From Ruditapes philippinarum (lineage: Eukaryota), in NCBI RefSeq assembly GCF_026571515.1, contig NW_026855294.1:806001-870000 (forward strand): a DNA stretch of 64,000 nucleotides. The letters run 5' to 3'. The position numbers were made by a program, and so were the translations under genes. A model generated the notes under the pieces. It was given only the letters and a program-made list of their open reading frames with translations. It had not been told where the DNA came from and did not search any database. Every line of letters starts with the position of its first letter. Position 1 is the stretch's first letter. Below, in pieces: positions 5,471 through 46,015 of this stretch.

Positions 5471-8011
5471 ATCACAATTATTTAATATTTTAAGATATTT
5501 AGGGGGTAAACTAATGACAATCAGTTCCATATTCAAAGAAGATGAAAAATCTTGAAAACAATGTATTGTTTAACTGCTGTGTCACCATAATTTATAAACA
5601 TATTGGCAATCACATAAATGAATAAGTAATCTAACTATTCTTGCTTGAAGGATGCAAATTATGGGTATTTAAATAGTTTTGCATTTATTCCATAAAAAAT
5701 GTCATTGGTAGTATTGATATAAGAGTAAGAGTTTTGTAGGAGGATTTTCAACATTTGTCCCGATTCCTGAATAAATGATAAATTTGTTGGAAAGTATTAC
5801 TTCAGATATCGCCTTGATGGGTATCTAATTGTTAGAAAATATTAAAGCAGCTGTCTCATTGCTTGATAATAAAATGTTCTCATCATTTTAAGTGAAAATA
5901 AATAAGAATTTCAAGAAAACAATAGCAAATAATAAATTTTACAGAAAGGAATTTTCAATTAATCTTTCATAATTTATGTAGCATATTGCATATTAAAGAT
6001 TCACTTGTATTTTATGACATGGTTGCTTTAATTTTGTTGGGTTCCTTTTTGTTTTTAATTTATTTTATGAATCAAAAGAAAATGTATACAGTTTTATGAG
6101 AGCATGTATGCTGCTTTTCATATATTTTTGTATACCATATTAAAAGTGCTTTAATTTGCATTGCTTTATAAGAAAAGTTGCCCTTTATAATTTTTTTAAA
6201 GAATTGTCTTTGAAAAGAAACTGCAATTAATGTTTTGTATTTCTTTTAATCATATGAGGTAATTCCACTAATTTTGAAATAATTAGATTTAAAGTACATT
6301 TATTTTTTCCCTATTTAAAGTAATGCAAAATCAGTTTTTGGAATGAATCTTTCAGAGTTATATATGACACAGTTTCTTTAACTTGGAATTGCCTAGAAGA
6401 GTAGACTTTTTCATTAGATATTGATCTTTGGAATAATTGCAGATGGATCATTATTTATGTGTTTCTTCTGCAAACAGTTATCCTCAATTACTACGATATT
6501 CCATCATTTTATGGTAGAAAGAGATTTTGTCTAAGGAAATCTGCAGAAATAATTGTTGAAAGATATTTTGTCCCCAGTTTGTGACATCTTGATAAATGTT
6601 AAAATAAAGTTTTTTTTTGCCTATTTAACAGTGATGTCAAAGTTTCCTAGGAAAATTAAAGCTCTTCTTAAGTTTTATTGTTACAAATTGAAAATGTTTT
6701 ATATGCTATTTTTATGCTAGTTTTTTTACCCTATTGTTTTATTTGTCTTATTGCCTATAGTTATATTTGATATTTTTATCAAAATATGCATTAATACCAG
6801 ATTTTGTGGCTTCATAAAGTTTTTACTTTACAATTTAAGTTGTATGAAATATTTGCAAAAATGAAGAATTTTTTGCCATTTCTTATTTACTAATTTTGCT
6901 TTATTTTTGCTTTAGTTTATTGTTTAAACTTTTGTTGCTTATTTGTCAAGATGCAACAAAAAATTGTACCATCCTGTTATTGATTCATCTTGTTGTTTCT
7001 GAAATTGTCAATCATAGATTTTAAATATTTATTGGTTGAAATGCGCAAAAAAATTGTCATTGTCACTCTTAGATATGTATTGACAGTGTGTACCAGTCTT
7101 TATGTTCTTGTCATTGTCATGTCAAGTGTTTTGTCATAGTATTGTTCCCTGTTTTTGTCACACTGAGTTTGTCATATTTACATGTCCTCAGATTTTCCAC
7201 TTTCTTATTGCCAAGAACTTTTCCAGATTTTTGTAGTCCCCCATTTCCCCAGTAGCATTGCCATTGCCAGGGACTTTGTCAAGTTCTTATTACCAGATGT
7301 TGCCTATTTGATCAAATATTGTCAGAACAATTTGCCACAATTTATTTCAAGAGTATTGCCAGAAATCTTTTTCAGTTTACTGTCACATTTTAAAAATTGT
7401 CTGACAATGTGCAACATTTTCATTGTCAGTCATTTTGTCTCATTGTTATTGTCAGAACAATTTTGTCACATGATGCAAAAGAGAAGAAAAAAATCATGCA
7501 TAAGGTTTTGATTAGTTTTCTATTGTTCAAGGTATCACTCATGAATTCATAACCATAAGTCTGTAGATATAAGTTGTGATGAAGGTGGAAGGGAGATAAC
7601 TCAAATATACAGATAAGGCAGGTGTATGTAATGGGTTGTTAAGTTCCCTCAATCAAAATTGTATGTTCATCAATGAAGAAATAGAAATAACCGACACAAC
7701 CTGATTTTCAACAATATTCATTCTTTCATATATTTTTTGTGTGCGATTTAATTAGAGTAACTCCAATGCTTCACTAAAGAATGTCTTAATGTAAACGGAG
7801 GCTGATAAAACGGGAAAGGTTTTATTTATCTAAGTCGGCCCTGCTAGGATATGTGTTTTCCAATTAACTGAGTAATTAGGATGCAGGTGTTAAATTGAAG
7901 TGTATAAAATATCGGTGATCTGAATGCATTATAGACGAAATGTTAATAGTGTATGGGATGGTTTTCAGATGAAATGATAATTATATAGTAATTATTTTGT
8001 CATTAAAATTC

Positions 8012-11402: not shown

Positions 11403-12036
11403 GGTGAAGGCGAAAAGAGACAAAATATAGTGGTAAAATAAAATTGCAAATGTGATAATAATAAAGAAAATGATAATATTGACTTGAGCTCATGAAGAGA
11501 ATGTAAATTACAGACATATGATATGAAAACTTGATTTTGTATTATGGCATTGAAACATTTCAATGACTTTAAAATCAAGCAAAATATAGGGGGAAATGTC
11601 AAAAGCAAACATGTTTATCCAATGGTATGTTAGATGTAAGCAGTGATTTGTCTGTACTAGTAGTTTGAAAATATGCCAGTCTGTGCATAATTTCTGGCCT
11701 CAAACTATTGGCTGATTAGTTTTAGCCTTTTGTCTATCAAAATCCCTAACATCAATGAGCTGTAGTACCAAATGCAAATCAAGTACAAAATTAAGCAAGC
11801 AAATTGTGCGAGGTAAGGGTAAATAGGGGATCAAAATTTAATACTGGTTCTCTTGTTTGAAATGTAGTTCAGACCTTCAACTGATTTCTTTTACACTGAC
11901 TGCATTGTGCAGATAAATTTCTTAATTTTGTAATTCCCGAAAGGTTGAAACATATTCATATAGACTTCTCAGGTCAAAAGATGTTTAACTGTGTTTAACT
12001 GTAAAATTGTTTCCATTTCAGGTTAAAGGTTTAAAG

Positions 12037-14221
12037 ATGGCTTCTGAGGAAACGAGTGAGATGCTGGAATCATCTAAACCTCAGTTAGACCTCCGTTTTG
12101 TAGACCATGTTGAATCAAAGATACAAAGCCCTGAGAGAGAAGTTATCAGTCCAACAAAAAAGTCAATAAAAGGTCCATTTTCTGCTTCAGCAACAAGTTT
12201 AATTGGAAAGATAAATGAAAATGGTACTATGGATAATGTTAATGAAAATGCAAAATCAGACAGTAAAAAGGAAGAACAAAGTGAAACTAAGAGTAATGAT
12301 AGTGGACTAGATTCTTCAAATGTTAGTTCAGAAAACAGTGAGGAACATTTTATAGACAGACAAGAAAGTTATACAGCAGTCGATGAACCAGAAGTATTAA
12401 CATCACCAAATAGAACTGTGGATAAGCTGTTTAACTTTTTAGACAGTTCCTCTTCACAGTCTTTAGATGCCCTTAATAACAATAGTGAAGTCATAATAGG
12501 TGATAATGAAGAGGATAAGATTGAAGTTGCTCAAACAGATATGTATCTTGGGAAAGAGGTAGCCTTGCATGGAGGTGAAAATGGTAAAGATGAGAATGTA
12601 GAACAAAAAGAGACTGATGATGCATCTATGAATTTGTATTGGTATACCAGTAGTTTAGATGTGGATATGGCAGAATTGGAACAATTTAAGACATCACAAA
12701 CAGAAGAAAGTAAAACAACAGAAACTATCACCACAAATTTACAAATAACTGTAGGAAATGGTTATTACAAGACAAAAAATATTGAAGTAGATTTAGAGCC
12801 TCAAAATGGAAGTGTGTACAAATCAGAAACAAGTTTTGATATTAAAGCAACACCTGTTAAAAGAGATAGTTGGTCTCCTGCCTTTGAATCAGCTTCTAGT
12901 AGAATCCTTGATCTAGCATCAGAACTGAAATCTGAGCCAAAGCATAAAAAGAATAAGGAAAATGAGTCTATTAGAAGTGCTGTAGAAGTTGATTTAGAAA
13001 AACACCCATGGGGTTTAGATGTGGATAGAAAAGTTATGTCTGAAGTTGAAACAGAAGGTCCTGATGATTTACCAGATATTGGTGAAATTTCAAGTAGAGA
13101 TAATGTAGATAGTTCTGTAGGTCCTTATCAAAGTGAGGCCTCAGTAGCATTTATGGAGAATGAATTTTTAAGAAATACTGAAAGCTTGGAAGACGAAGCA
13201 GATGCTATAGGGTATATGGAATTGGCAGACAAACCTATTGTAGAAGTAACAAGTAAATCTGTTAAGTCACAAAAAGGTAAGAGATTGGACCAAGAGGACA
13301 AAGTGAAAACAGTTGGTGCTAAAGAAGAGCATAAACAAAAGATTGAAGTTTGTGCTGAAGATGTAGCAGATGCCATTGGTTATATGGAATGGAAAGATAA
13401 GCCAGTAGATGAATCAATAAAAGTTTCTGAACAAACAGTATTAGAATATGTTGACCATAGAAGTACAGAAAGAACTGTTGGTGAAGTAAGGACTGAAACA
13501 GCTAGTGTCACAAGTATTGAAAGTCAAATTTTAGGCAAAGGTGCAATGGTTGAAGCTAGTCAGAAATCTAAGTCAGAAGGAATAGATTCTCCTGATGCAG
13601 GATTGGAAGTTATTGAAAAGTCAGATAACAAAACTGTTCAGTCTTCATTACAAGAATCTCTAAAGGAGCCAGAGAAAGTTGAAGCAAAGCCATTTGATCC
13701 ATTTAATATTAAAAGAAAATACATTGTAGGAAGAGATTCAGAAGGGACTGTGAAAAAGATGGGAGGAAAGTTAATAGGAACGGAAAAAATGGTTGATGAA
13801 TATTTAGATGATAGTAACTATTCTCTTCTGTTGAATGACTGTTGGTTAAGACTTAGAAATAAGAAATTTGAAATGAAAGTCAATGCCGCCTTTGGCTATG
13901 GTCCAAATATATCACCAGCTGTAGAAATGCTTACTAATGAAAGTGATATCCAAGAAATGCTGATGAAGAAGTTTGAGAAGACATTGGAACAAAAAAGAAG
14001 GGTGTCTGAAAGACAGTTAGATGTTCTCATTGATGCTTTAGGCTTCTCAGAGTTTGTTACATTTGAGACCATAAGAAAGAAATTCCAGGTGGATGGTTTT
14101 ACTGTTACTATGGAAACGACCAACTTCGGGTTCCAGGTTGGTGAGGTTGACATTGTTGCCAATAGTTTGCCAGAGATGATGACCAGTTTGAAAAACATGG
14201 ATGACTTAGCTGCAAAATTAG
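12037..14221 (+). CDS. Main coding exon of a thiamine-triphosphatase (CYTH)-like protein with a ~555-aa acidic low-complexity N-terminal extension
   Basis: Acceptor TTTCAG ends at 12021, ATG is at 12037 and donor G|GTATGG is at 14221/14222. The C-terminal ~175 aa (NIKRKY...GGKL...DEYLD...LLLNDCWLRLR...FEMK...RKKFQVDGFTV...FGFQVGEVD...LAAKLG) match the motif order of vertebrate THTPA as recalled. Confidence 0.85.
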
Positions 14222-14863
14222 GTATGGCTTTTAAGAAATGTTTTGATGATATAGTTAACAGTGACTTTTAAAGTAAAAACTGTTGTGGGAAAAAGAAAAC
14301 TTGTATGTTATATACGCAGTAATAGTACATTTGAGTGCTAACAACAAACTTATTGCTGCTTTGAGTCGTGGGTTTGAACCTTTTGCTTATAAGTATCATA
14401 TTCATGGAAGTTGCCATGACTGCTTTTGTCTGAAATTTATTTTGAAGGAGATGTTGATACTCTGTATATTAATTTAGTTTAATTTTTGTTTTTAATTTGA
14501 AGTTAAACTTATGTCTTGGATTTTAATGTTGTAAAGTATGGAAGAAATATATATGATGCAAATTACCATTACGTTAACGTTTTATCACCCCTTAGAGTGC
14601 TGGTGTCAATAATTACTTATTACTAAATATGACACTAGTATAGGGGCAAACTAACCTTACCTGTGAAGTTTTACCAAGCTCGAACCTGTTGGCTGTGCAC
14701 ATTTGTATTTTGATATTAATATGCTTGAAACAAATAATGGACTGCTCCAGATTGCAGACAAGGCAAAAAATTTTTTTTTTAATTTTGGTAATAAAATCGT
14801 TAATGAACAATTTGGGGCTTTGCTATCTCTATAAGTGTGTATATATTTTTCTGTCTATTATAG

Positions 14864-21379: not shown

Positions 21380-22861
21380 CTGTAAAAGAACAGTGTAAAA
21401 AAAAGTACAATGGTATACTAATAGATACCTTTATTTAAACAATATGTAACCTCTACTGTAAGACCACCTCCTTTGAAGATCTGTTTCAGTTAAATATTGA
21501 ACAAATATATTGCATTTCAGTTTTATTTTAACTTTTGCCTTGTGACCATCTTTTAAATAAAATTTGGAGTTTTATCTAACCACCACCTGTCTTAAAGGTC
21601 TGGTTCTTTCTATTTACAGTTTATATATTGTATTTAAAGTTTTATTAACCTTTGTCTTAAGACTACTGGCCATTATCATTTCAATTCAACGTAAAACAAA
21701 TATTATATATAATTGTATAACAGTTTATTCTAATCTCTGGATAAGGACCACCTGTATTAAACCAATTCAGTTTTGGTGTAAACATATTGTATGGAATAGT
21801 TAATTTAACCTCTAAAGACAACCTGCATTAAAAGACCACTATCCATATAATTCGAACACTGGTCTTTGTAGACAGGGATCTCTATAATCTAAGAATTATG
21901 ATTACAAAAGTCAGTAATTAGTGCAATTTATATGATATGTTAATTCCAATGTTTCCGTCTGCATTCACTTTCACGTGTTGGAGAACAATAAACTTTGAAG
22001 CGTAGGTTTTTATGTTGGGGATTTGCCTAGAATCCAATACATTGTACAAATGTCCATTTTATGACCAATTTTGATGGAAAATTGACACTTTTAATGGGAG
22101 AAATTTGTTATTTTAAGCGAAAATAATGAGTCTGTGTGAACATATTTTCATCAGTTTATTACTACACTGGAAGCCTGCAATTTCATATTTGTTATTATTT
22201 CCTGTAACTATTTATTATTATTTTCATAGCTTCATATAAAAATTTTATGAATTTCACTCGTGAATGAAGCGTATAGTTGCTAGTGGTCACGTGTCATGCC
22301 TTTTCATATTAGTAAATAAATGATTATTAAAAAAAAAAAAAAAAGAGGAGAAAAGAATGGAGAAACTTTTAATTTGATAAATATATCAGTGGTCCAATTT
22401 GAATCTCAATAATAAAATATAATGGTTATTAAAAATATAGAAAAAAAAGAAAATTATGATATTATTTTAAGGATGCATATCATAAGGACTGCATAGTAAA
22501 TTAAGTAAAAGTTAAATAAGTGTCACTGGAAGCCTTTCATTTACATGTATAGAGTAAAAGCAATATAAACTTCTAAAGGAACATTTTCCTGCACTCTTGT
22601 TTTTATAGAAACTATATAGAAACCTTTTTCAAGAACTAAAATTAACAATAAATTAAAAGATTAGGAGGGGAGAAAAACACATCAAATATATTTTAAGTAA
22701 ACTAATAAAGTGGTACAGAACAAAATAATATGCTGCTATTTTATTGAAGGTTTTATCAAGCAAAAATTTTCTGCTTTTTAACCAGGTTTTCAACGAAAAC
22801 CGGGTTATTGTAATGCCGAAGTCGGCGGGCGGGCGGGCGGGCGGGCTGGCGTCAACTTTTG

Positions 22862-23447
22862 GTTTCCGCTCAATAACTTTAGTTTGCTTAGGCCTATTGA
22901 CACCAAACTTGGTGTATGGGTAGCTTATATCAAGAGGCAGCTTGGGATTGCTACCCAGGTGTCTGTGATCAAGGTCAAGGTCACTGTTACTAAAAATAGA
23001 AATTCAGTTTCCGCTCAATAACTTTAGTTTGCTTTGGCCTATTGACACCAAACTTGGTGTATGGGTAGCATATATCAAGAGGCCGCTTGGGATTGCTACC
23101 CAGGTGTCTGTGATCAAGGTCAAGGTCACTGTTACTAAAAATAGAAATTCAGTTTCCGCTCAATAACTTTAGTTTTCTTTGGCCTATTGACACCAAACTT
23201 GGTGTGTGGGTAGCTTATATTAAGAGGCCGCTTGGGATTGCTACCCAGGTGTCTGTGATCAAGGTCAAGGTCACTGTTACTAAAAATAGAAATTCAGTTT
23301 CCGCTCAATAACTTTAGTTTTCTTTGGCCTATTTACACCAAACTTGGTGTATGGGTAGCTTATATCAAGAGGCAGCTTGGGATTGCTACCCAGGTGTCTG
23401 TGATCAAGGTCAAGGTCACTGTTGCTAAAATAGAAATTCAGTTTCCA
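22862..23447 (+). repeat. 4 x 145-bp tandem array inside the Helentron 5' region
   Basis: GTTTCC(GCTCAATAAC) recurs at 22862, 23007, 23152, 23297 and 23441. The copies are nearly identical. Confidence 0.95.
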
Positions 23448-24742
23448 TGTAATTGCTTCATTTTGCATGTATTGATTGTGTTGCTTTCAAATGAATGCTT
23501 TGTATCCATGTTGCTTTGTATCTGTAAATGTGTAGTACCCTTATATATCATGCATTTGTTACGGTGCCCTTGCTGAATTGATCAATATCCAATTATTGCA
23601 ATAGAAAACAAACTATCTGTCAAAAGAAATAAAGAAGCTAAAAGCTTATATTTAATCTATTTTATTTAATAATTACATCTGTATCAATTCAGCAAATGTG
23701 ACTTACCTCCTATAGGTGGGCACTGGAAACAAAACCACCTTACTAAAAGCTTGAGTGCAAATAGTCGCTTGTTGACATTGTCATTTAACCCCTGTTTGTT
23801 ATTGTGTGTTTGTATGTGAAGGCTGCGCATTATGCTAGTGTAGACATTGTTTCTTTAATAACTTTTTACATACATATTTAAAGAATATTTCAAAAAGAAT
23901 ATTTCTAATATACTTTTGCACTGTACTTTTGGCTAAATCTTCTTGCACTGAACAAGGGCATGGCTTAGTACTATTTAATGTGCGATATGTAACTGTAAAG
24001 TAAACATTTTCCATCTGCAATCACAGCATACTGCTTCTGCCTTTAAAACGCTAGTATACACACATTTGCATTCAAGCTTTATTATAATATTCTGTAGTTT
24101 GAACCTTATAGTAAGCACAGTAGTGTAGTTGGTGCAATGCATGTTCTTCATTTGATTTAAGAAATAGTTGTCTTTTGGACATGCTGGAAAGCACATCAAG
24201 ACACTTTTTCATTTTTCCACACAACCCTTATTAAATCGTAGCACAATCATTTAATATTACAAAAGTGACTGGTTTTATTTGCAAATGTCTGCATAAAACC
24301 TGTTAATGAAGTTAGACATGGTGGTGGTTTTGGCTAAAAGTCACTTTTACATAAATATTCCTTATTTTGTCTGCTCTAAACAAAAGATCTCTGCATTTTA
24401 TTTGATTTAAACTGCTGCATACATTGGTCAGTGTCTTTATTAGCATTTTGGTATTCAGTAAGTCCTCTGAAAAGCATGTTTATATAAAAGTGTATTTTGT
24501 TTAAAGCAGACAGTTTATAATCACAGTTCACATAGCAGCTTTATTTCTATTTCAGGCATCATTTGATTCTAACTTCATCATCATTATCTGTAATAAACCT
24601 TTCACTAACAGCTTTATTTCAGATAACACAGAATTTTATTTTTAAGATGGCAATAGATATGAATTCAGAGTAAACGTCCAACATTTACAAAGTTTTCCAT
24701 ATTATACACATATTACTTTGTATTTGCAGATAACATATAAAA

Positions 24743-25219
24743 ATGGCAAGTAACATTAATGATCTTAGAAAATTTATCTCAGAGTCTGTGTGTGATATTG
24801 ATATTCATTTGAAGGCAGCGGGATATGACATGTTTGCTGCTGATAGACAAGCAGGAACTCAGACCCTGGAATTGATTAGGAGTAAAGTAAAAGAAATGGA
24901 GGAGAAATCCAAGCAACGGATTTCAAACATTGAGAGGTCCATGCACTCTCTTGAGCACCAGCTTAGAGTGAAGGATCAGCGCAATTACCATCTGGAGAAG
25001 GCCAATGAACGGCTTACTGCTGAAAACAACAGGTTAAAGCAGGAATTGGATGACTTCTTTCCAACCATCGCAGACACAAGTATTCTTAATGTTAGCATGA
25101 ATGCCTCCCAGGATGATTCAGATGACAAGAGTGAAATTGCTGGCTCAAGTAGTCATTTTGGTGCCTGGCAGGATGATGTCAAGAGTGACACTCCAGACAA
25201 GAAACAGAAAACCGCATAG
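24743..25219 (+). CDS. Helentron accessory ORF: 158-aa orphan coiled-coil protein with an acidic tail and a C-terminal basic NLS-like motif
   Basis: AAAATGG start context with acceptor TTTGCAG ending at 24729. Higher GC than the flanks. Heptad pattern (LEHQLRVKDQRNYHLEKANERLTAENNRLKQEL) and PDKKQK near the C-terminus. Confidence 0.7.
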   Translation: MASNINDLRKFISESVCDIDIHLKAAGYDMFAADRQAGTQTLELIRSKVKEMEEKSKQRISNIERSMHSLEHQLRVKDQRNYHLEKANERLTAENNRLKQELDDFFPTIADTSILNVSMNASQDDSDDKSEIAGSSSHFGAWQDDVKSDTPDKKQKTA

Positions 25220-25652
25220 ACTGTTGTCTCTAATCATTTTGCACAAACATTATGTTAATAGATATTATACCTGAAAGCATCAGACTCATTTGTACCTGCT
25301 GAATACTTATGTTTGTATTGTTACATCAAGCAGATGAACTTAGTGGGAAAAAACATTTATCGTTGAAAATTTAGTGGGAAAAAACATTTATCGTTGAAAA
25401 TTTGTTTGAACTCTAAAACAGTGACTGTCTACGTGTTGATTAATTGATTGATTCTTTGTATTGCTTATATATTTTGTTTTGCATATTGCAGGCAAAAGGT
25501 GACTTGTATAGTTGCATACAGAAGGAGTGTATGTCTGTGATTTATTCACTTTATGTTAAGAAATGTTTGCTTGTTGTTAAAATTGTATATGTAAATTGTA
25601 AATTGTATATGTGTACTAATAGTTTTGAATAAATCTTTTTTCAGATTGAACA

Positions 25653-28600
25653 ATGCCTAAGTTGAAGAAAAAATCAGATAATCAAAAGCACGCCCAAGAC
25701 AGGGAGAGGAAGCGCAGGATTTCTTTACAAAATGTATCTCAAACTAGTGACACTGACACTTATCATAATGATATGAACACTGTTTCTGTTAATCAGTCAA
25801 CACAACATTTTGTTTTCAACGCTGTGGACTTAATGTGGCAAATTCAAAAGTGTCTGGATATAAATACACGTTTCAACAGTTCATTAAACATAATACAAAA
25901 TCTCCAAAGCAGAATATCTCAGGAAATTCATGAACCTACAATATGTATTAAAGTTAAAGGGGATGGAAACTGCTTTTTTCGATGTATTGCTTATGTGCTA
26001 TGTGGAGACGAAAGCTTTCATACCCAAGTTAGACAGACAGTGCTTTTACATATGTGCTCCAGTTCCCAGATACTAACTTCACTCTTGCCACCAAATACAA
26101 CCATGTCACAATACATAGCTAGGTCAAAGATGTCTGAAGATAAAGTATGGGCAACACAGGTTGAGATAATATCCACAGCTCACTTATTACAGACTGACAT
26201 ATATACATACTCAAAATATGGACATGAACTGAAATGGTTAAAACATACTGCACAGTTCGTAGACAATACACTCCAGATAAATGAAAAAGCAGTTTATTTA
26301 GACCACCATACAGGTATTCATTTTGATGTTGTACTTGATGTTGGAACATCAGTGTCTAGTGATTCTACAGCTGAAAAAACTTTTCTGTGGAGTGAATTGT
26401 TGAAGCAAGAAAGTCGGCAAATATACAATAAGTACTACAAGCAGGCCCAAAGACAATGTGCTGAGTACAAAAACAAAGAAAACAGAAGCAGGAATGAAGG
26501 ACGCTCTTCAAAAAGAACCAATAGTGAGTACAGACTGTTACAAAACCAGCGTAGGAATGAAACACGTTCTTCCAAAAGAACTGACACTGCATACAGACAC
26601 TCAGAAAACCAGCGTAGGAATGAAACACGCTCTTCCAAAAGAACCGACAGTGCATACAGACACTCGGAAAACCAGCGTAGGAATGAAACACGCTCTTCCA
26701 AAAGATCCGATAGTGCATACAGACACTCAGAAAACAAGCGTAGGAATGAAACACGCACTTTGAAAACTACCAGTAGTGACTACAGACAATTACAAAACAA
26801 GCGTAGGAATCAAACACGTTCTTTGAAAAGAACCGATAGTGACTACAGACACTTGGAAAACCAGGGTAGGAATCAAACACGTTCTTTGAAAAGAAACGAT
26901 AGTGACTACAGACATATGGAAAACCAGGGTAGGAATCAAACACGTTCTTTGAAAAGAACCAATAGAGACTACAGACATATGGAAAACCAGGGTAGGAATC
27001 AAACACGTTCTTTGAAAAGAACCAATAGAGACTACAGACATATGGAAAACCAGGGTAGGAATCAAACACGTTCTTTGAAAAGAACCAATAGTGACTACAG
27101 ACAGTCCGAAAATGAAGATAGAAATGAAAACCGTAAAAGAAAACGAAGCAATAGTCAATATAGACAAACAGAAAATGATCACAGAAAAAAATGGAGATCA
27201 TCGTCACATCGAAAGCAGAGAGAATTACTTTTAAAGCGTAAACAAAGGCAGAAAAAAAGGTCAGAGCAATCATCGCTACAAACACAAGTACAGCTATTCA
27301 ATGATCTTTTAAATAGAGGAGATGACTTTGTGTGTACAAGCTGCCAACAGACGTTTTACCAGCACAGTGTCTACACAGTGAGTAGAAAAAGTTTAATCAG
27401 GAAAGGAATATCACCCCAGTTTATAGACAAAGTGTTAACAGATTATAAGAGTGTTTTAAATTCAGAATGGATATGTAAAACCTGTTACAATTACATCTCA
27501 GATGAGAGAATGCCTCCAATGGCTGTTGCCAATGGGTTCTTACTTCCACACCTTCCAGATTCACTATCTTCTCTTAGTCCAACAGAAACAGAGGAGCGAT
27601 GTACAGCATTGAGGATCCCATTCATGCAACTGAAACAACTGGGCATTGGAAAACAGTTTGGCATCTATGGAAACACTGTTAATGTACCAATGAACCCCTC
27701 GAGTGTAGTGTCTATGCTCCCAAGAAGATTTGAACAAACAGAGACTATACACCTTCAGTTCAAGAGAAGACTTCAGTTTAAATCTTCAGTATATTATGAA
27801 ACAGTCAGGCCAAAGGTAATATATGACTTCACCAAATACTTTGTAGAAAACAGTGACTTATACAAAGAAGAGGGAGTTACATTGGATAATGAATGGTATA
27901 AAGAAGCACAGGACAAAAAAGAAATTTCCTTTTCTTCTGTGGAAGATATTGAAAATTTACAAACGGAAGACACTAACAAAGAAAAGCAGGAGAGTACTGA
28001 AGAGGATACTTGGAATGAATTGACCGAAGAAGAACAGGCAGGTGCAGGGAACAAGGACACCTTGATGCAAAATGTTGACTTTGCAGATGATGGTCTTCAT
28101 GCACTGCAGATAGCGCCTGGTGAAAAGAACCATCCAATAAGTCTATTTATGGACACTTTTGCTGAGGAGAAGTCTTTTCCTATCTTGTTTTGTGGCAAAA
28201 AAAGAATCGAAAATATTGAACGGACTGTACCAGTAACTTACAGTTCAATATGTAAAGCAGAGTTAAGGAATGTGGATACAAGATTCTCTAAATCCGTCCC
28301 AAATATGTTTTTCAAACTTAAAAAATTACAGGCATTGCAAGTAAGAGATTTGGCTACAACTGCTCTCAGAAAATCTAAGAATGTTTCATATACTGCGGGA
28401 GAACTGAAAATACCAGAAAACATTCAAAACATCCTACATCATGATGACGGATTTCGATTTCTAAAAACTCTTCGATCTTCTCCACCATACTATCAGACAA
28501 AACAAAAAGATTTGTTTGCCATGATCAACCAGCTAGGCTTGCCAACATTCTTTGCCACTTTCTCTGCAGCAGAAACAAGGTGGCCAGATCTGTTAAAACT

Positions 28601-31600
28601 TCTCTGTAAAAAGTCTGGCAAAACTGTTACTGAACAGGAAATAGTCAACCTGAACTGGATGGAAAAGTGTCAACTGATACAAAACAATCCAACCACATGT
28701 GCTAGACACTTCCATTACAGAACTAAGTTGTTTTTAAACAACTTCCTCACATCAGATATCTCACCTATTGGGAAGGTGGAAGATTTCTTTATCAGGGTGG
28801 AATTTCAACAAAGAGGGTCCCCTCATCTACACTGTTTGTTCTGGGTAAAGGATGCCCCTGTGTATGGCTCCTCTCCAGAAAAGGACATAATTGAATTCAT
28901 TGACAACAATATCAGCACAAGTTCTGATGTTCATGAAGATGCAAAACAGTTTGTACAGTTACAGATGCATCGCCATTCCCAGTCATGTAAGAAGAAAGGG
29001 AAAGAGATATGTCGATTTGGATTTCCCCTCCCACCAATGAAGGAAACTTTGATAATGGAACCATTTTCTTCTGACACGGAAAAGGAAGTTTTGAAAGCAG
29101 CCAAACAGAACTATGAGAAAGTACTGAAAGTGTTAAAAGCACTACCTAAGGATGCAGAACTAACATTTGATCAATTCATTGGACAGTGTGAGCTTACCTA
29201 CGACCAGTATCTTGGCGCTGTTAGGTCATCATTGAAGAGGAAACAGGTACTTCTGAAAAGAGCAGTGAAAGATGTGAGAATGAATGCATACAACTTGAAT
29301 GTATTAAAAATCTGGCAGGCAAACACAGACCTTCAGTATGTGCTAGATCCTTGGGGAGTTTGTGTGTATATTGCGAGTTACATCATGAAATCACAGAGAG
29401 GAATGAGCCTGCTTTTACAGAGAGCAACGGAGGAAGTGAAAAAAGGAAATTTAAAGCTAAGGGAGAAAGTCAGACACATCGCCAACAAGTTCTTAAATCA
29501 TTGTGAAGTCTCTGCCCAGGAAACCGTTTATTTGTTGCTACAGCTTCCTCTCACTCAGAGCTCAAGAAGTGTGATTTTTATAAATACCTCCCCACCAGAA
29601 AAACGTGTAGAAATTCTGAAGCCATTGTCACAAATAGAACATCTTCCTGATAGCTCTACAGATGTAACATGTTCTGGATTGATTGACAGGTATGCTGATA
29701 GACCAAAAATATTAGAACAGCTATGTTTAGCAGAGTTTGCCGCATTCTTTGAAAAAAAACCACGTTTAAAGAAAGAAACTGGAAAAGAAATTCCAACTGA
29801 AATAGATAACACAGACAACAATGTTGACATTGTAACACCAGGCACTGAGATCAAATTGGCAGATGGAAGTCGACTTGTACATCGCAAGACACCTAAAGTG
29901 ATACGCTATGTGAAATTCAATGTATCAAAAGACACAGAGATGTATTACAGAGAACAGCTGATGTTATTCTCACCTTTCAGGGAAGAAATGAAGCTAATGG
30001 GCACATCAGACAGTTTTGAAAGCCAGTATAAACTCTTAGAGGAAAAAATAACCAACAAACGCCATCAATTTCAGATTGGTACAGAAGGTATAGAAGAGGC
30101 TATGAATGCAGTATCAGAAGAAATGATCAATGATGAATTAGATGACATTGCACCAGTTGCCAGGCAGTCTGAAGAAGATGCCGTTTTACAAAAGGAAGAT
30201 CCTGTTTCCATGCTGCAACCTCCACATGAAAAATACAAGCACTTTGATATAGGGTCTTTTAAAGACTCACCAGAAGCAAATACTCGGGGATGCATTATCC
30301 AGAACAGAGTGTCAAATGAAGATTTTTTCTCTATGGCAGTGTCTTTGAATGAAGAGCAAAAGAAGTTTTTTTATGAAGCATTACACAGAATTAAGACAAC
30401 AACTGAACCATTTTACTTCTTCCTTTCCGGTGGAGCAGGAGTTGGAAAATCCCATGTACTTAAGACCATTTATCAGGCCTTGGTTCGTTATTTTGACAGT
30501 GTCCCAGGCGAAAATCCTGATGACATCAAGGTTGTTATTGCTGCACCAACTGGTAAAGCAGCGTACAATGTACATGGGAATACGCTGCACAGCCTTCTTG
30601 ACATTCCACCCAGCAATGCTTTGAGATCTTATATACCACTTAGTAATAGCACTCTCAATACCTTGCGCAGCCGTTTTTACAAGCTAAGAGTTTTAATCAT
30701 TGATGAAGTATCTATGGTCGGAGTCAACCTCTTTAATTTTGTATGTAGCAGACTGCAACAAATCTTTGATTCCACCAAGCCATTTGGAGGTATTTCACTA
30801 ATTCTTGTTGGAGATCTCTTTCAGCTGAGACCAGTTGGTGATTCATGGATTTTTGAGAATGATTCTGTTCAATATGGTCCATTATTGAGAAACCTTTGGC
30901 AGGACCTAGTCCAGCTGTATGAACTGACAACCATAATGAGACAGAAGGATGATGCCATATTTGCATGCTGTCTCAACCGCATTAGAGAGGGAAAGCAGAC
31001 AAAGGAAGACATAGATCTTATTGCATCAAGGCTATGTACCAAGGAAGACACTAATCAGTGTATTCACTTGTTTAGCACCAACCACCTGATTGACGAACAC
31101 AATCAACAAGTGTTATCATATAAGGAAGGACTGACATTCATTTCTGTTGCTGTGGACTATATACAAGGTGATGTGTCTGTTAAAGACAGGACAGCAGTTT
31201 TAGACTTTGTTAAACACTTAGAAGTTAGGAAAACTCAGAATTTGAGATTTGAACTCCAACTTAAAGAATCTGGAAACTACATGCTAACACACAATATCAG
31301 CACAGCAGATGGATTAACCAATGGTGCCAGTTGTCAAATAGAAATGGTTCAATGTTTTAATAATATACCGACAGTAGTATGGGTCAAATTTCAGCCAAAT
31401 GAAATAGGATCAGTCACAAGACAGGAACATAAGCACTTGTATGCATACAGTTCTGCAATTCACAAATCATGGACACCAATACAAAAAATCCAAAAAGAAT
31501 TTCAAACATCCAAAAACAGCAAAGTAAAAATAGTGAGAAAACAGTTTCCTCTGCAGGCAGCAGAAGCCATATCTATTCACAAATCTCAAGGTTCAACTCT

Positions 31601-32435
31601 TGATGAAGCAGCTGTGTCCTTCAGAGGTAGAATTCAGAAACACATGGTCTATGTAGCATTAAGTAGAGTCAGAACTTTAAAAGGACTTAAACTTCTTGAC
31701 TTTGATCCTAAGAAGATTACTGTTGATTATCTTGTTCAGCAAGAAATGCTAAGAATGCGGAATGAATCATCATTGCAGTGCACACAGTTCTGTCTTCCAA
31801 AGTCAAATTTTACAGTTGCATGTCATAATTCAAGGTCACTTCACAAGCATATCAACCAGTACAGGAACGACACAAGACTCACTGATGTTGATGTCCTGGT
31901 TTTACAAGAAACATGGGCATTAAAGGATGACTATAAACACCATTACCACCTGAATACTTTTCAGGATCCCTATTGCATCTACACAGAAATTGATCGGAAG
32001 AGACCACACTCTGGAACATTCATATATGTTAAAATAGGGCTTAACATTGTATCTAGTGTTCAGGCAACAGAGCCTGGCCTGGAAAGTGCATGTCTTCTGA
32101 TAGAAAAGAATGGACACCAGTTTGAAATCATAAGTGTATATTGCCATCCACCTGGAAACACATCTAAAGTTTGTAAAACAGTACAAACACTCAGAACTCG
32201 AACAGTGCCATGCATTATAATGGGAGACTTTAACATTGACCACTTACACCTCTCAAAAAGTGAGAAATTATGTCAGTTCATGGAAAGACATTTGAAAGCA
32301 AAGCCACAGATCTCTGATGAAACAACAGATTACCATTCCCTACTGGATCAGATATACTCTTCAAAACCAGCCATAAGTGCAGGAGTCCTTGAAACTGTTT
32401 GGAGTGACCATAAGATTGTGTGGGCAGCCATATAA
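25653..32435 (+). CDS. Helentron RepHel polyprotein (OTU cysteine protease, 21-aa repeats, Zn-finger, HUH Rep, PIF1-family SF1B helicase, AP-endonuclease), 2260 aa
   Basis: OTU motifs GDGNCFFR...WAT..EI...HFD. Zn motif CTSC...CKTC. HUH motif VEFQQRGSPHLHCLFW and catalytic YIASYIMK. Helicase motifs GGAGVGKS, IIDEVSM, GDLFQL, MRQ, SIHKSQG, YVALSR. EEP/APE motifs HNSRSL, LQETW, GDFN, LDQIY, SDH. No stops or frameshifts. Confidence 0.96.
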   Translation: MPKLKKKSDNQKHAQDRERKRRISLQNVSQTSDTDTYHNDMNTVSVNQSTQHFVFNAVDLMWQIQKCLDINTRFNSSLNIIQNLQSRISQEIHEPTICIKVKGDGNCFFRCIAYVLCGDESFHTQVRQTVLLHMCSSSQILTSLLPPNTTMSQYIARSKMSEDKVWATQVEIISTAHLLQTDIYTYSKYGHELKWLKHTAQFVDNTLQINEKAVYLDHHTGIHFDVVLDVGTSVSSDSTAEKTFLWSELLKQESRQIYNKYYKQAQRQCAEYKNKENRSRNEGRSSKRTNSEYRLLQNQRRNETRSSKRTDTAYRHSENQRRNETRSSKRTDSAYRHSENQRRNETRSSKRSDSAYRHSENKRRNETRTLKTTSSDYRQLQNKRRNQTRSLKRTDSDYRHLENQGRNQTRSLKRNDSDYRHMENQGRNQTRSLKRTNRDYRHMENQGRNQTRSLKRTNRDYRHMENQGRNQTRSLKRTNSDYRQSENEDRNENRKRKRSNSQYRQTENDHRKKWRSSSHRKQRELLLKRKQRQKKRSEQSSLQTQVQLFNDLLNRGDDFVCTSCQQTFYQHSVYTVSRKSLIRKGISPQFIDKVLTDYKSVLNSEWICKTCYNYISDERMPPMAVANGFLLPHLPDSLSSLSPTETEERCTALRIPFMQLKQLGIGKQFGIYGNTVNVPMNPSSVVSMLPRRFEQTETIHLQFKRRLQFKSSVYYETVRPKVIYDFTKYFVENSDLYKEEGVTLDNEWYKEAQDKKEISFSSVEDIENLQTEDTNKEKQESTEEDTWNELTEEEQAGAGNKDTLMQNVDFADDGLHALQIAPGEKNHPISLFMDTFAEEKSFPILFCGKKRIENIERTVPVTYSSICKAELRNVDTRFSKSVPNMFFKLKKLQALQVRDLATTALRKSKNVSYTAGELKIPENIQNILHHDDGFRFLKTLRSSPPYYQTKQKDLFAMINQLGLPTFFATFSAAETRWPDLLKLLCKKSGKTVTEQEIVNLNWMEKCQLIQNNPTTCARHFHYRTKLFLNNFLTSDISPIGKVEDFFIRVEFQQRGSPHLHCLFWVKDAPVYGSSPEKDIIEFIDNNISTSSDVHEDAKQFVQLQMHRHSQSCKKKGKEICRFGFPLPPMKETLIMEPFSSDTEKEVLKAAKQNYEKVLKVLKALPKDAELTFDQFIGQCELTYDQYLGAVRSSLKRKQVLLKRAVKDVRMNAYNLNVLKIWQANTDLQYVLDPWGVCVYIASYIMKSQRGMSLLLQRATEEVKKGNLKLREKVRHIANKFLNHCEVSAQETVYLLLQLPLTQSSRSVIFINTSPPEKRVEILKPLSQIEHLPDSSTDVTCSGLIDRYADRPKILEQLCLAEFAAFFEKKPRLKKETGKEIPTEIDNTDNNVDIVTPGTEIKLADGSRLVHRKTPKVIRYVKFNVSKDTEMYYREQLMLFSPFREEMKLMGTSDSFESQYKLLEEKITNKRHQFQIGTEGIEEAMNAVSEEMINDELDDIAPVARQSEEDAVLQKEDPVSMLQPPHEKYKHFDIGSFKDSPEANTRGCIIQNRVSNEDFFSMAVSLNEEQKKFFYEALHRIKTTTEPFYFFLSGGAGVGKSHVLKTIYQALVRYFDSVPGENPDDIKVVIAAPTGKAAYNVHGNTLHSLLDIPPSNALRSYIPLSNSTLNTLRSRFYKLRVLIIDEVSMVGVNLFNFVCSRLQQIFDSTKPFGGISLILVGDLFQLRPVGDSWIFENDSVQYGPLLRNLWQDLVQLYELTTIMRQKDDAIFACCLNRIREGKQTKEDIDLIASRLCTKEDTNQCIHLFSTNHLIDEHNQQVLSYKEGLTFISVAVDYIQGDVSVKDRTAVLDFVKHLEVRKTQNLRFELQLKESGNYMLTHNISTADGLTNGASCQIEMVQCFNNIPTVVWVKFQPNEIGSVTRQEHKHLYAYSSAIHKSWTPIQKIQKEFQTSKNSKVKIVRKQFPLQAAEAISIHKSQGSTLDEAAVSFRGRIQKHMVYVALSRVRTLKGLKLLDFDPKKITVDYLVQQEMLRMRNESSLQCTQFCLPKSNFTVACHNSRSLHKHINQYRNDTRLTDVDVLVLQETWALKDDYKHHYHLNTFQDPYCIYTEIDRKRPHSGTFIYVKIGLNIVSSVQATEPGLESACLLIEKNGHQFEIISVYCHPPGNTSKVCKTVQTLRTRTVPCIIMGDFNIDHLHLSKSEKLCQFMERHLKAKPQISDETTDYHSLLDQIYSSKPAISAGVLETVWSDHKIVWAAI
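26463..27200 (+). repeat. Coding 63-bp (21-aa) tandem repeat, ~11-12 units, inside RepHel
   Basis: Consensus xYRHxENQxRNxTRSxKRTxS. GTAGGAAT recurs with a 63-bp period (26551, 26614, ...). Confidence 0.92.
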
Positions 32436-32894
32436 GTTACAAAGTACATCAATACGGTACATGTATTATTATTAAGAATTACTAGCTGGGTTTGTTTCGG
32501 CCACTACACAAACATGTATGAATCAGTAATTTGCATATGGGGAAAAATTGGACTGAAATTACTGACTCCTTATATATCTGTGTAATGTCAGGAACAAGCC
32601 TTATAATTGATTTATTTCATCAACCACTTTTCCTAATCATTTATTTATTTCAGTGTTTCACCATATCCTTAGTACTAAACCTGTATGATTTCTACTAACC
32701 CTACATAATGAGATCACAATCTGCATGCAACCAAAATAATGGCATCATGTGTTTTCTTCACTCCCATCTTTTATTTTTCATTCTGTCAAATCAATACTTG
32801 GACGTTGAAAACCTGGTTTCGTCGCATTGCGGCGCTTCTTGTTCTCTTTTGTTCTGTTTACAGTTAGATGGCCCCCTATCCCTATTCGGTAGTG

Positions 32895-33964: not shown

Positions 33965-35171
33965 CAAGAGGGCCATGATGGCCCTGAAATCACTCACCTG
34001 TATATAGGCCCCTAGGCCAAGGCCAATTTTAAACCAGGGGCTTTTATTTGACAAACTTGGAAGACACCCATTAGAAGATGTTTCATGATAAATATCTAAG
34101 CTCTAGCTCTTTGGGGTTTATATCAGAAGAGTTTTAAAGTTTTTACTATATACATATAGGGTAAAACAATACCCCCATCACAGAGGGGCCAATTTTGACC
34201 CCAGGGCTTTTATTTGAACAAACTTGGTAGACACTCACTAGAAGATATTTCATGCTAAGTCTCTAAACTAGCTCTTTGGGTTTTTTATAAGAAGATTATT
34301 TAAGTTTTTACTATACACAAATAAGGAAAATCAATGACCCCTGGGGCGGGCCAATTTTAACCCAAGGGCCCTTATTTGAACAAACTTGGTAGACACCCAT
34401 TAGAAGATGATTCATGCGAAATATCTTAGCTAGATCTTTGGGGTTTTTAAAAGAAGATTTTTTAAGTTTTTACTATATACATATAGGGAAAAACAATGAC
34501 CCCCTGGGGCTTGGCCAATTTTTATCCCAGGGCTTTTATTTGAACAAACTTGGTAGACACCCATTAGAAGATGTTTCATGCTAAATATCTTAGCTCTAGC
34601 TCTATGGGGTTTTTAAAAGAAGATTTTTTTAAAGTTTTTACTATATACAAAATCAGGAAAATCAATGACCCCCTGGGGTTCAGCCAATTTTTACCCCAGG
34701 ATATTTATATGTACAAGCTTGGTAGACACCCACCAGTAGATGTTTAATGCTTAATATCTTAGCTCTAGCTATTTGGGGTTTTTAAAAGAAGATTTTTTAA
34801 GTTTTACTATATACAAATAAGGAAAATCAATGACCCCAAGGGGCGGGACCAATTTTGACCCCAGGGCATTTATTTGAACAAACTTGGTAGAAACTGACTA
34901 GATGATGTTTCATGCCAAATATTTAAGCTCTAGCTCTTATGGTTTTCTGAAAGAAGATATTTTAAGTTTTTTCTTTCGGATGCCATGGCTTGGAATTAAA
35001 TTCTTTGAACAATTTTTAAAATTGACTACCAAAGGAACATTCCTGTGGAGTTTGGATGAAATTTGCTTAGCGGTATATGAGGAGATGTCGTTTAAAGTAA
35101 AAGTTTACGGACGGACGCCGGACGAAAAGCGATCACAAAAGCTCACCATGTCACTTTGTGACAGGTGAGCT
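33965..35171 (-). mobile_element. Non-autonomous Helentron-type element (HINE/DINE-like) with a ~6 x 165-bp array
   Basis: The low-coordinate end has AA|CAAG, an AGGGCCAT-G-ATGGCCCT hairpin and CTCACCTG. The other end has GACG repeats and a GCTCACC...TGTCAC/GTGACAGGTGAGC fold-back followed by TAAAAA. CCAATTTT recurs every ~165 bp. Confidence 0.88.
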
Positions 35172-42686: not shown

Positions 42687-43771
42687 CTGCAACGAGACAA
42701 ATATTCTAGTAAGTTGCATCCCTGGCTCGTTAAATTTGTCACAAGATATTCTTTAAATTAAAAAAATCATATCGTTTTTTGTAATGACAGTTAACACCTT
42801 TAAAGGTTTCAAAGCAGGTAGACAAGTTTACATACAACCTAGTCATATTATAGTTTTCACTTATGATAGTTCCGGAGCAAGTATTGTAAATTGACTCTAA
42901 AAGATCACTAGCCATGTGACCCTTTAATTTAGCCAATAATCTGTCACATGTGACCTCAGTGTCACAGAAAAGCTTGCTACAAAATAAATGTACAAATATA
43001 TCATAGGTGCTTCAATTTACAATATGAAAGTGTACTCACAACAACAAAAAACAACATCAATATTTTTCTTAAATCACTTCTATTCTAAATATTTTTTTTT
43101 ATTCTAAAGTTCAAAATGTATTAGCAACCTAGAAGTACAAATGCATTTAATCAGTTAAATATTGCAATAACTTCTTAACATTGTGGTCACATGCATGGCA
43201 ACTGTCTGTTCTTTGATATTAAAATTCTGACAATTTAATCCCATGGTTTATTTAGATAATTATTATGTAATGAATATGTAAAATTGAACAAAGAAGCTGG
43301 AAGTCTGCTGAAGACATTTATATTATATTATGTGAAGTACATGAACTGAATGTTGCATTAAAAGGAATTTCAGTACACTCATTATTCCGGCATAAAATTA
43401 TGATACTTAATACTTTTTCAACTATTAACTGTTATTACTATACATCAATCTTCAATTATATGCAATGAGTAGTCAAAATCTCTTATTTTTCCATAGCAAG
43501 TTGTAAGCAATGTGCTTAAATAATTTATTCAGTTTCAAAGAAATTATGCATAGTGCATACTTATTTGAATGTTTGTTGTTTTTTTTTAATAAAAAGTTGA
43601 ACCTTAAGCATTAACAATAACTATATCCTTGACTCAAGTAAAATACTTACTACTCTGAAACTAACAAAACCACTGGAAATATACAACACTTAAGATTACA
43701 TTTTCACAATATGTAAACATGAAAGAAACAGAGATAACAGGCTGCATAAAGCAATAATAGAAACTATTTAC

Positions 43772-46015
43772 CTAGCTGAGTAAACAAGGTTCTTCTTTGG
43801 CGCTGATCCTTGATCTGGTGGTTTTGGTACTTTCTGGTTTAAATCAAGTGGTGGAACCGGTGTAAGATAATCTGGTTGAGAATTTTTGTTGTTATCACTC
43901 TTATCAACTCTTGGCGCTGAATTTGAACGTCTAAGTGCTCGTCTTTCTCTCCTTTCCTTATTCTCAGAGCGTTTCTTCTCCTCTTTTAATTTATTATCTT
44001 TAGTATCACTGTCTTTATTATCATCAACAACAATTGCATTGTTCAGTTTACTATCACTACTACTACTTGGCACTATATTAAAATGATTTTGCACTTTTTC
44101 TTCTAATGGTGATATAGCCGGTGTTGCACCTCTTGTCCGTATATGTTCCTCTATAGTCGTTAATGACTGTCTACGTTTAGTCTTATCTTCAGACCTAGAA
44201 TTGCTTCGGCCTCTTTCTCTACCTTCGCGACTTCTACTTCGCGACCTCCTTTCTAATCCAGCAATATCACCATCAGATTTTGTCTTCTCTTTTAACAGTA
44301 AGTCAATAGGCTTTAACAAATGTCTAGACTTAGCAGGAGAACCACTTATATTACTATCAGACCTTTTATCTTTTGCAATTTTGTCCAGGCTATCTGAACT
44401 TTTTTCTTTTCTTAGATTAGAGCTAGACAACTTACCAAAATTTGACAATTTCAAGTTATTTAAAACAGCTAATTTTTTAACATCTGACAAACTTTCTTTG
44501 TCTTTTAAAGATGATTTAGAAGGACTAGTAGGATATTTTGAAGGGGCATTCATTCGATTTCCTAAGTCTTTTGTTAATTTGTCACTAACATTTTCTGAAA
44601 GTTGACTGGGTATGGTAAATGCATGAGGTATTGCAGAATAACTAGAAGCTTGACTTGTTCCTATGGCACTCCCGTCCTTACTTGTTCTTTCACTTCTACC
44701 CCGCGACCTTTCACTACCAACAGCACTAAATGAAAAATCTCTAGAATCTATATTTAAACTTTTTTCATCCATTTTTTCTTTAATGAAAATATTCATGTGT
44801 TCTTGCGGACTATCTTCTATATCATCATCTATAAATATCAATGAATTCCGCATTAACTTTCCATGATCTTTATCAGAGTCAAAGTACATGGAATTCCTCG
44901 CTATACTATCTAACTTTAAATCATCTTCATCTGCTAAAGTATTCATAAGATTCATTTTATTTCTAGACTTTGTAGTAGATTTATGCACTTTGCCATCTGC
45001 TCCAATGACCTCTTCACCTCCCTCCTCCTCATTATCACTGTTATCAGTACTAGATGCAAACCCTGACACACCTTGCCATTGACTAGCATGCGTGAAAGGT
45101 GCTGCACGAGTTGCATTTTCATCTACATTATCATCACCCATAGTGTGAGTTCTATCATCAGTTTGCATAATTGCAAATGTTAACTGAGCTCTGCTAATTA
45201 AATGCTCTGGAAAAGAATTTTCCACAATATTGCACGAAGGTTCTGACTGGCGTCTTGGAACTATACCCCTATCCTTTTCACTCATATTTTCTGGCACGCT
45301 AAAAGCTTTTGGTATTTCCATCCCATCTTTATCCCTACCCACTTTCTCAAAGTTTCTGACTAACTGTTTCACACTATGAGGTTTATGCTGAGCAGTTTCA
45401 TTAATATCTGTTGCAGGTACAGCTTCAGGTACTTGTTCATCATCATTAGCACTTGATTTCTGACCTATATTCATTCCACCCCCAATCTTATTCATAGCAC
45501 TTTCAAATCTTTCGATTTGTGGTAAAGTTCGACTTGGCTTTGATATAGCACCATCTTGCTTACTAGCACTTGTCTTTTCAGGTTGAACATTTTTAGCTTC
45601 AGGCTTTATCACTTCGTTCTCTGACAATTTAATAGACACTCCCGTTTCTAGTTCTTTTAAATTCTGTTTACTATCACTTGTTTTAAGAATACCCTTTAAT
45701 TGTGTATCAAGTTTGGCTAAATCCTCACCAGCCTTTTCATCTTTATCTTTCTCCAGACCTTTGTTTTCATTTTCTTTATCCTCAATCTTTTCTTTTACTT
45801 TTTGTTCAGCTAAATGCTTTTCTTCTCCATCTTTATCATCTCGCATCTTCTCAGCTTCTTTCTCTTCACGAAGTTTGTTGTCCATTATTTTATATTTGTC
45901 ATCATTGATATGATCTGCTTCTTTCATTTTTTTCAGGTTTTCTTCACCATCATTTTCACTTAAGTTCTCATCAATTACTTCCGTTGCACCATGGCCTGGA
46001 GGATACTGGTTCAAG
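43772..46015 (-). CDS. TTBK: TTBK large exon encoding the disordered C-terminal tail
   Basis: 753-aa ORF with acceptor TTTTCAG and donor AG|GTAAAT. Phase matches the 46679 donor. Confidence 0.85.

Follow-up and report, generated by a model that had tools for sequence, protein, structure and literature searches.

A 158-amino-acid (aa) open reading frame (ORF) in the window, the 64-kb stretch of DNA analyzed here, is very probably a functional gene of the transposon in which it lies. The transposon is a complete 10-kb Helentron (HLE2), a known type of element, and the ORF represents a real and apparently undescribed family of accessory genes. The gene is optional, being carried by one group of Helentron lineages. 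Accounts of eukaryotic rolling-circle transposons usually present an element with a single enzyme that has now and then captured a host domain; a partner gene that is conserved yet has no known domain, and that Pfam-based surveys missed, would be an added component of the Helentron machinery.

Architecture and putative transcription of the element

The element is delimited by inverted arms that match perfectly over 16 nucleotides (nt), at positions 22780 to 22795 and 32803 to 32818 (Table 1). RepHel is a 2261-codon open frame in which OTU (residues 103 to 218), DUF6570 (residues 619 to 748), Helitron_like_N, PIF1, and a C-terminal Exo_endo_phos domain (residues 2062 to 2254) all score above the Pfam cutoff, so that an HUH Rep domain (Helitron_like_N, E value of 8e-28) and a Pif1 helicase (PIF1, E value of 5e-25) occupy one ORF. 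The Rep-Pif1 ORF, the C-terminal AP-endonuclease, the OTU and DUF6570 domains, and the inverted ends with a 3′ stem-loop are features of HLE2 elements. This layout and these features match the descriptions in PMC4067079 and PMC11417382. HLE2 elements insert between T and T without target duplication; T-rich sequence lies on both flanks here. A basic 63-bp (21-aa) repeat within RepHel (positions 26399 to 27265) recurs in many other RepHel families of the genome, with units of 63, 69, 75, or 93 bp.

Table 1 Features of the Helentron in the window (positions counted from the first letter of the window)
Feature	Position	Strand	Remarks
Element 5′ end: 16-nt subterminal inverted arm, nested short inverted repeat	22780..22806	+	T run before it
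145-bp tandem repeat, about 4 units, at element 5′ end	22862..23430	.	
Putative splice donor of noncoding leader exon	23700..23721	+	Putative cut after 23715; motif conserved in copies
Small-gene splice acceptor	24710..24729	+	X17 RNA contig alignment begins at 24728
Small accessory gene, 158 aa	24743..25219	+	Intact ORF; predicted helices 2-31 and 35-105, disordered acidic tail
AATAAA, then second acceptor (AG at 25643-25644), 8 nt before RepHel ATG	25628..25644	+	Putative roles
RepHel transposase gene	25653..32435	+	Intact; OTU, 63-bp repeats, DUF6570, HUH Rep, Pif1 helicase, AP-endonuclease
Element 3′ end: inverted arm, then GC-rich hairpin and T-rich flank	32803..32834	+	

A gap of 433 bp separates the stop of the small gene (25219) from the RepHel ATG (25653). 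The putative donor motif is found, with up to 5 mismatches in 22 positions, in copies on contigs C2641, C12542, C10206, and C2453; its last 11 letters also occur at loci L027 and L028, and it resembles the join in the RNA contig described below. The AATAAA and second acceptor motif are present in L027 too, and the AG of the small-gene acceptor is mutated in that copy. The succession of 5′ repeats, putative leader donor, acceptor and small ORF, AATAAA, and acceptor and RepHel suggests alternative splicing from one promoter. Such a promoter, near the 5′ repeats, would produce a noncoding leader, which would be spliced either to the small-gene acceptor (24729), with polyadenylation near 25628, or to the RepHel acceptor (25644). 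The acceptor chosen would then determine how much accessory protein is made relative to transposase.

Reexamination of positions 24743 to 25219 confirmed what the initial annotation had reported there: an intact ORF of 158 aa, a good start context (AAAATGG), an upstream acceptor (a pyrimidine tract and CAG ending at 24729, 13 nt 5′ of the ATG), a heptad region, and an acidic tail. An ATG-initiated ORF as long as this one appeared in none of 1,000 Markov-resampled copies of the surrounding 2.2-kb region. The heptads extend from I60 to F105, with Leu at 84, 91, and 98 and Asn at 81, 88, and 95. The ordered part of the protein is charge neutral (19 D/E, 18 K/R), and the tail, residues 106 to 158, is acidic (10 D/E versus 5 K/R), rich in Ser/Thr, and terminated by PDKKQKTA. 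The AlphaFold2 model of the protein (P0001), built from a 10-sequence alignment, consists of two helices, residues 2 to 31 and 35 to 105, joined by a short turn, with no strands, a pLDDT above 90 for 97 residues, and disorder from residue 115. The predicted structure is an N-terminal helical hairpin, in which the first helix packs back against the start of the long helix, followed by a stalk resembling a leucine zipper, three of whose core positions hold Asn, and then by a disordered acidic tail that opens with a Phe-Asp/Pro-Asp-type motif. Asn at such heptad core positions is a signature favoring parallel dimers, and the product likely forms a parallel coiled-coil homodimer. The initial annotation had also singled out PDKKQK, a motif that becomes PDKDQK or GKDQK in relatives with 85 to 86% identity; its alteration in the closest relatives leaves a nuclear localization role unsupported and rules the motif out as a conserved localization signal.

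Of four sequencing runs, X17 alone was informative on expression. It gave a 563-nt contig (depth, 7.7; ∼97% identity) that covers positions 24728 to 25256, and it gave no coverage of positions 25257 to 26390; a 214-nt intronic contig of depth 3 reflects some unspliced RNA or DNA. The 563-nt contig begins with 30 nt that exactly match a host exon on contig C7443, joined at the element acceptor. The joined sequence is exon 1 of a host gene (C7443:35946-36700, L025; a paralogue lies on C157) with a signal-peptide-like first exon and the start of a Cys-rich ectodomain. The host donor whose use leaves the frame open into the first acceptor of the next exon is 22 nt downstream of the join. The host site resembles the element motif at 23700 to 23721, and the fused sequence closes the host frame just short of the ATG of the small ORF. 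No copy of the element is present in C7443:28000-67999 of this assembly. Two readings fit the fusion: in an individual carrying an insertion at that site, the acceptor may trap the host exon; alternatively, template switching may have joined the host mRNA to an element mRNA in which 23715 had already been spliced to 24730. Either reading needs the acceptor to be used, which places acceptor use in one RNA library. The initial annotation had made transcription a test of the gene, and the result is a single contig, from one run and fused to a host exon, that uses the predicted acceptor. X24, although labeled RNA-Seq, was rejected as evidence of expression: GATC lies at or next to the break in all six loose ends listed, and the intron is covered, a pattern expected of a proximity-ligation DNA library. 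Coverage of the stretch by X6 is even and DNA-like, and that by X19 is restricted to positions 26253 to 26390.

Family, linkage to RepHel, and selection

The protein had at first been taken for an orphan; it belongs instead to an unnamed family with a helical hairpin, a long coiled coil, and an acidic tail. Its relatives in protein databases are P0003 to P0008, at 84 to 87% identity, and P0009 to P0013, P0015, and P0016, at 38 to 48%, none with an assigned function. Searches of its own genome (a 1.41-Gb assembly) with four small proteins found at least 18 distinct family loci. Subfamilies AB and C are homologous (hhalign, 97.6%; E value of 3e-12 over 102 columns; reversed control, 0.4%). Identity across distant members is 13 to 46%, and K24, D34, and L91 are nearly invariant.

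Similarity and profile searches, which the initial annotation had called for, supplied relatives, yet no Pfam family, no named function, and no host parent. P0001 matched no Pfam family at the cutoff, and 16 aligned members gave only scattered coiled-coil matches. PDB sequence, Foldseek, VIA-align, and ESM Atlas searches for a distinctive fold returned generic coiled-coil or unnamed matches only, and neither Pfam nor PDB sequence searches detected a DNA-binding or enzymatic domain. The best PDB sequence matches were bZIP-type coiled coils, weak (E value of 1.5e-4 or worse) and restricted to the zipper part. A bZIP transcription factor was rejected, as P0001 has no bZIP match at an E value of 0.1 and bZIP_1 is weak (E value of 0.0035) in 1 of 16 members; so was an RPA or OB-fold accessory gene, the model being all helical without strands and the 16 members lacking any RPA or Ssb-like Pfam match. 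The cores of Snf7, PspA, and CHMP align to the model with Z scores of 8.5 to 9.4, equal to those of designed bundles, where the meaningful level of the tool for helical bundles is about 13; Foldseek E values against ESCRT-III/PspA-type folds were 0.98 or worse. Viral contigs scanned with the small-protein alignment and with the Rep region gave no matches, nor did a plasmid collection searched by tblastn. Longer or fused forms numbered 0 among 7,992 candidates of 344 to 2,000 aa, which is weak evidence, and a host parent gene was found neither in the own-genome searches, whose counts are lower bounds, nor (again weakly) among longer proteins.

The evidence on genomic context comes from one genome and two metagenome contigs. 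RepHel lies downstream on the same strand, within 8.4 kb, at 10 of the 18 family loci, or 10 of the 15 testable ones (the window, C2641, C12542, C6405, C7002, C920, C3292, C10654, C4672, and C1385), and directly downstream at both metagenome loci. Five loci (C11302, two on C7967, C14695, and C9564) have no RepHel in 8 to 14 kb, and three (C12024, C13420, and a fragment at the start of C10654) reach the contig end within 2 kb. The initial annotation had asked whether homologues always lie upstream of RepHel; they do so at those 10 testable loci, and the other five have none nearby. By arithmetic, even 2,000 Rep fragments would place one within 10 kb downstream of a random site ∼0.7% of the time; the Rep search of the genome gave at least 129 matches.

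We also approached the linkage from the Rep side. Among 27 loci selected by Rep, family ABC genes are upstream in three (C14149, C13510, and a weak relic on C15555), look-alike genes that we term family D in two and family E in one, and an antisense gene of family F in one; 20 have none, two of which have less than 1 kb of upstream contig. The members on C14149 and C13510 were recognized by hhalign at 77% and 90%, with reversed controls at 0.3%. Four further Rep-selected loci gave no small-gene match. RepHel cores linked to ABC genes are only 24 to 35% identical to that of the window and fall on both sides of a split with a support of 100 in the Rep tree, a quick version that leaves out rows with fewer than 200 aligned residues; a clade of 14 rows in that tree has no such small gene. 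The trees do not agree throughout: at C6405 the small gene is of B type, but the RepHel remnant is nearest to the other RepHel group. Element ends were returned by an automatic search for C3192 and C102 only; it missed those of the element in the window, which marks it as insensitive.

Some Helentrons lack the gene altogether. The C14714 family has at least six copies at 76 to 98% identity, with RepHel frames of 2,630 to 2,643 codons open in two; between its shared 5′ end and RepHel, a distance of 3.6 kb, no sense ORF reaches 60 aa. The element on C3753, a close relative (62% in the Rep core), is also without it, and its RepHel is broken. The small protein may be supplied in trans to gene-less elements. 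The gene-less Rep loci and the C14714 and C3753 elements make a two-gene system true for some lineages only. The initial annotation had proposed a dedicated second component: the part that stands is a selected, element-borne gene, but a need of Helentrons for it is not supported, 20 of 27 Rep-selected loci being without one.

Two further RepHel clades carry the look-alikes of families D and E, first noticed by visual inspection, in the same slot. These genes have a single coding exon, mostly with an acceptor that precedes the ATG by 3 to 28 nt, and their products, of 143 to 190 aa, combine a coiled coil with an acidic tail; for one D protein the prediction is a helix at residues 3 to 25, a helix at 30 to 144, and a tail, resembling P0001. 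D and E genes lie inside defined element ends on C3192 and C102. Seven further D loci (three upstream of RepHel, one downstream, three without RepHel) and three further E loci (two upstream, one at a contig end) were found. The downstream case, an intact D gene at C14696:24233-24601 (−), ∼1.7 kb past its RepHel, may be part of a second copy in tandem or of an element that has been rearranged. D, E, and F showed no demonstrable homology to P0001, with 20% at best in hhalign, and the D and E genes either are orthologues that have diverged or came to occupy the same slot independently. Family F (C4886:26601-27017 [+], C1542, and C9613) is likewise a small acceptor-ATG coiled-coil gene with an acidic tail; it was excluded from the pattern because in the DNA examined the C4886 gene is antisense and outside the 5′ repeat array and neither of its two paralogues has a RepHel.

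Selection was estimated by Nei-Gojobori counting with kappa of 1 or 3 and 300 bootstraps. For the gene in the window, dN/dS was 0.30 to 0.43 against L027 (0.25 to 0.36 for residues 1 to 110) and 0.29 to 0.43 against the C2641 relic, with bootstrap upper bounds of 0.52 to 0.82; against C11302 it was about 0.3, with synonymous sites near saturation. The RepHel OTU control gave 0.17 to 0.23 and a close D pair gave 0.23 to 0.34, while the family E pair gave 1.6 to 2.2, three distant pairs gave 0.86 to 1.0 at kappa of 3, and the near-identical C7002/C3292 pair, with 7 changes, is uninformative. Between the gene in the window and its intact relative L027 there is a single in-frame 6-nt indel in 477 coding nt, compared to 9 in 580 nt and 6 in 425 nt of the flanks. 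Several family copies are broken, as expected of dead transposon copies. Neutral decay, with dN/dS near 1, had been named as an outcome that would speak against the gene; the values of 0.25 to 0.43 against two relatives, with bootstrap intervals below 1, do not show it. We conclude from these sequence comparisons that the 158-aa ORF is under purifying selection.

Possible roles of the small protein

Selection on a small zipper gene beside very different RepHels, together with its loss elsewhere, is more in keeping with a modulator than with a core part. The reading we prefer, by analogy with Orf121 of IS91 and with confidence a little short of even, is a dimeric regulator of RepHel; that RepHel is the target is itself a tentative assignment, nearly an even call. 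The small protein would bind RepHel or its complex as a homodimer and regulate transposition, and its acidic tail would make contact with the basic repeats in the N-terminal part of RepHel or else compete for DNA binding by RepHel. According to PMC13181058, Orf121 inhibits TnpA and transposition and sharpens termination, with fewer one-ended events; like the gene in the window, it is a small same-strand ORF directly upstream of an HUH rolling-circle transposase, is found in only some family members, and has potential leucine-zipper motifs. Unlike it, Orf121 has 121 aa and a CxxC motif and overlaps the tnpA start codon (PMC13181058), whereas the gene in the window has its own acceptor and a spacer before RepHel. 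The likeness is one of analogy, not homology. The plasmid collection, which may lack Orf121, showed no sequence similarity.

Small or coiled-coil partners encoded beside a catalytic protein are also known from L1 (ORF1p) and geminiviruses (REn/C3); unlike these, the protein in the window has no RRM or CTD, and Pfam and PDB searches showed no similarity to either. Helentron and HLE2 accessory ORFs described in PMC11417382 and PMC4067079 encode RPA, OTU, Ssb-like OB, UCH, Peptidase_C48, and other domains, and a Pfam-only scan listed RPA, OTU, and EN plus 17 other Pfam domains (PMC11417382). As with HLE2 RPA, a separate ORF upstream of RepHel holds the extra gene (PMC11417382), but the gene in the window has no Pfam family above the cutoff, and its product is all helical rather than an OB fold or protease. 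Since that survey, by HELIANO, sought extra domains by Pfam models only, it could not have listed the small gene. The RPA genes of plant Helitrons (PMC4683698) are likewise second, separately encoded genes on a rolling-circle transposon; they are captured host single-stranded-DNA-binding proteins with OB folds and several exons, whereas the gene in the window has a single coding exon and encodes a coiled coil, and the searches turned up no host parent for it. We found no description of a small coiled-coil gene in Helitrons in the openly available literature, including PMC6431247, PMC10294476, PMC9741609, and PMC4683698; Repbase annotations, subscription papers, and supplements may mention such ORFs.

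Action on the host rather than on RepHel is somewhat unlikely. The zipper would heterodimerize with, or act as a decoy for, host coiled-coil or bZIP factors, or the acidic-aromatic tail would recruit chromatin or transcription machinery, relieving silencing or raising element expression. The fast divergence of distant members, the unrelated look-alikes in the same slot of different RepHel clades, the patchy presence, the dN/dS above 1 of the family E pair, and the bZIP-type character of the best, though weak, PDB matches would all suit this, but those matches span generic coiled coil only, the searches detected no DNA-binding or enzymatic domain, and the A, B, C, and close D comparisons gave dN/dS values under 1. 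A structural role is improbable: a protein that polymerizes on or coats the intermediate, whether single stranded or circular, or that carries it in condensates or in membrane-bound assemblies, as ORF1p or ESCRT-III might, is suggested by the repeated alignment of the hairpin and long helix to Snf7, PspA, and CHMP cores (Foldseek E values of about 1 to 2), yet designed bundles score alike, below the meaningful level, and the ordered part is charge neutral, with no RRM or OB fold.

Two explanations would deny the protein a role, and both are very improbable. That the ORF is a captured host gene or exon riding passively, with C11302 or an unseen gene as the parent, accords with gene capture by Helitron-like elements (PMC11417382 and PMC4067079) and with the intact C11302 copy (L005; C11302:9816-10229 [−]), which has no RepHel in 9.8 kb downstream and no private substitutions compared to three related copies. 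This reading is largely refuted: purifying selection between element copies counts against it, since a passive fragment would show none; the protein tree places C11302 within a group of element-borne members; C6405, of the same subfamily, keeps a RepHel remnant 1.3 kb downstream; and the longer-protein search, weak as evidence, matched nothing. The C11302 gene itself is possibly a domesticated copy. The DNA around it is 96 to 97% identical to that around the C7967 copies, as a segmental duplication would leave it, and the matches of C11302 to the B-type copies (two on C7967, one on C6405) all stop at one point, ∼220 bp past the stop codon. Alternatively, the exon could be a splice and polyadenylation sink that diverts transcripts from RepHel, its frame kept open to avoid decay and the protein being of little importance. 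The order of acceptor, ORF, AATAAA, acceptor, and RepHel and the RNA coverage of the small exon alone agree with such a sink; the conservation of amino acids across subfamilies despite saturated synonymous sites, with three nearly invariant residues, does not.

If the small protein regulates RepHel or termination, as we tentatively prefer, it would offer a handle on Helentron self-limitation and on lineage differences in 3′ read-through gene capture, and gene-bearing and gene-less natural families in one genome form a ready comparison. An extension that we consider unlikely is that A to C, D, and E are one ancient, fast-evolving gene of an ancestral animal Helentron, lost in some lineages, encoding a dimeric RepHel partner that controls activity and 3′-end termination, the eukaryotic counterpart of Orf121. 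If so, whether an element carries the gene would help determine the frequency with which it reads past its end and takes up host DNA.

Other features of the window

Outside the element, a 760-codon open frame at positions 11989 to 14271 (+) is acidic and of low complexity, has a C-terminal CYTH domain above the cutoff, and is probably a large host exon. A 762-codon open frame at 43768 to 46056 (−) has no Pfam match and probably represents a large exon belonging to another host gene. Tandem arrays whose units measure ∼50 to 170 bp occupy positions 3760 to 5480, 34010 to 34975, 50440 to 52720, 54865 to 56260, 57800 to 58835, and 62030 to 62750, and some of them resemble the cores of nonautonomous Helentron derivatives. 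A 278-codon frame at 57781 is a translated 69-bp repeat.
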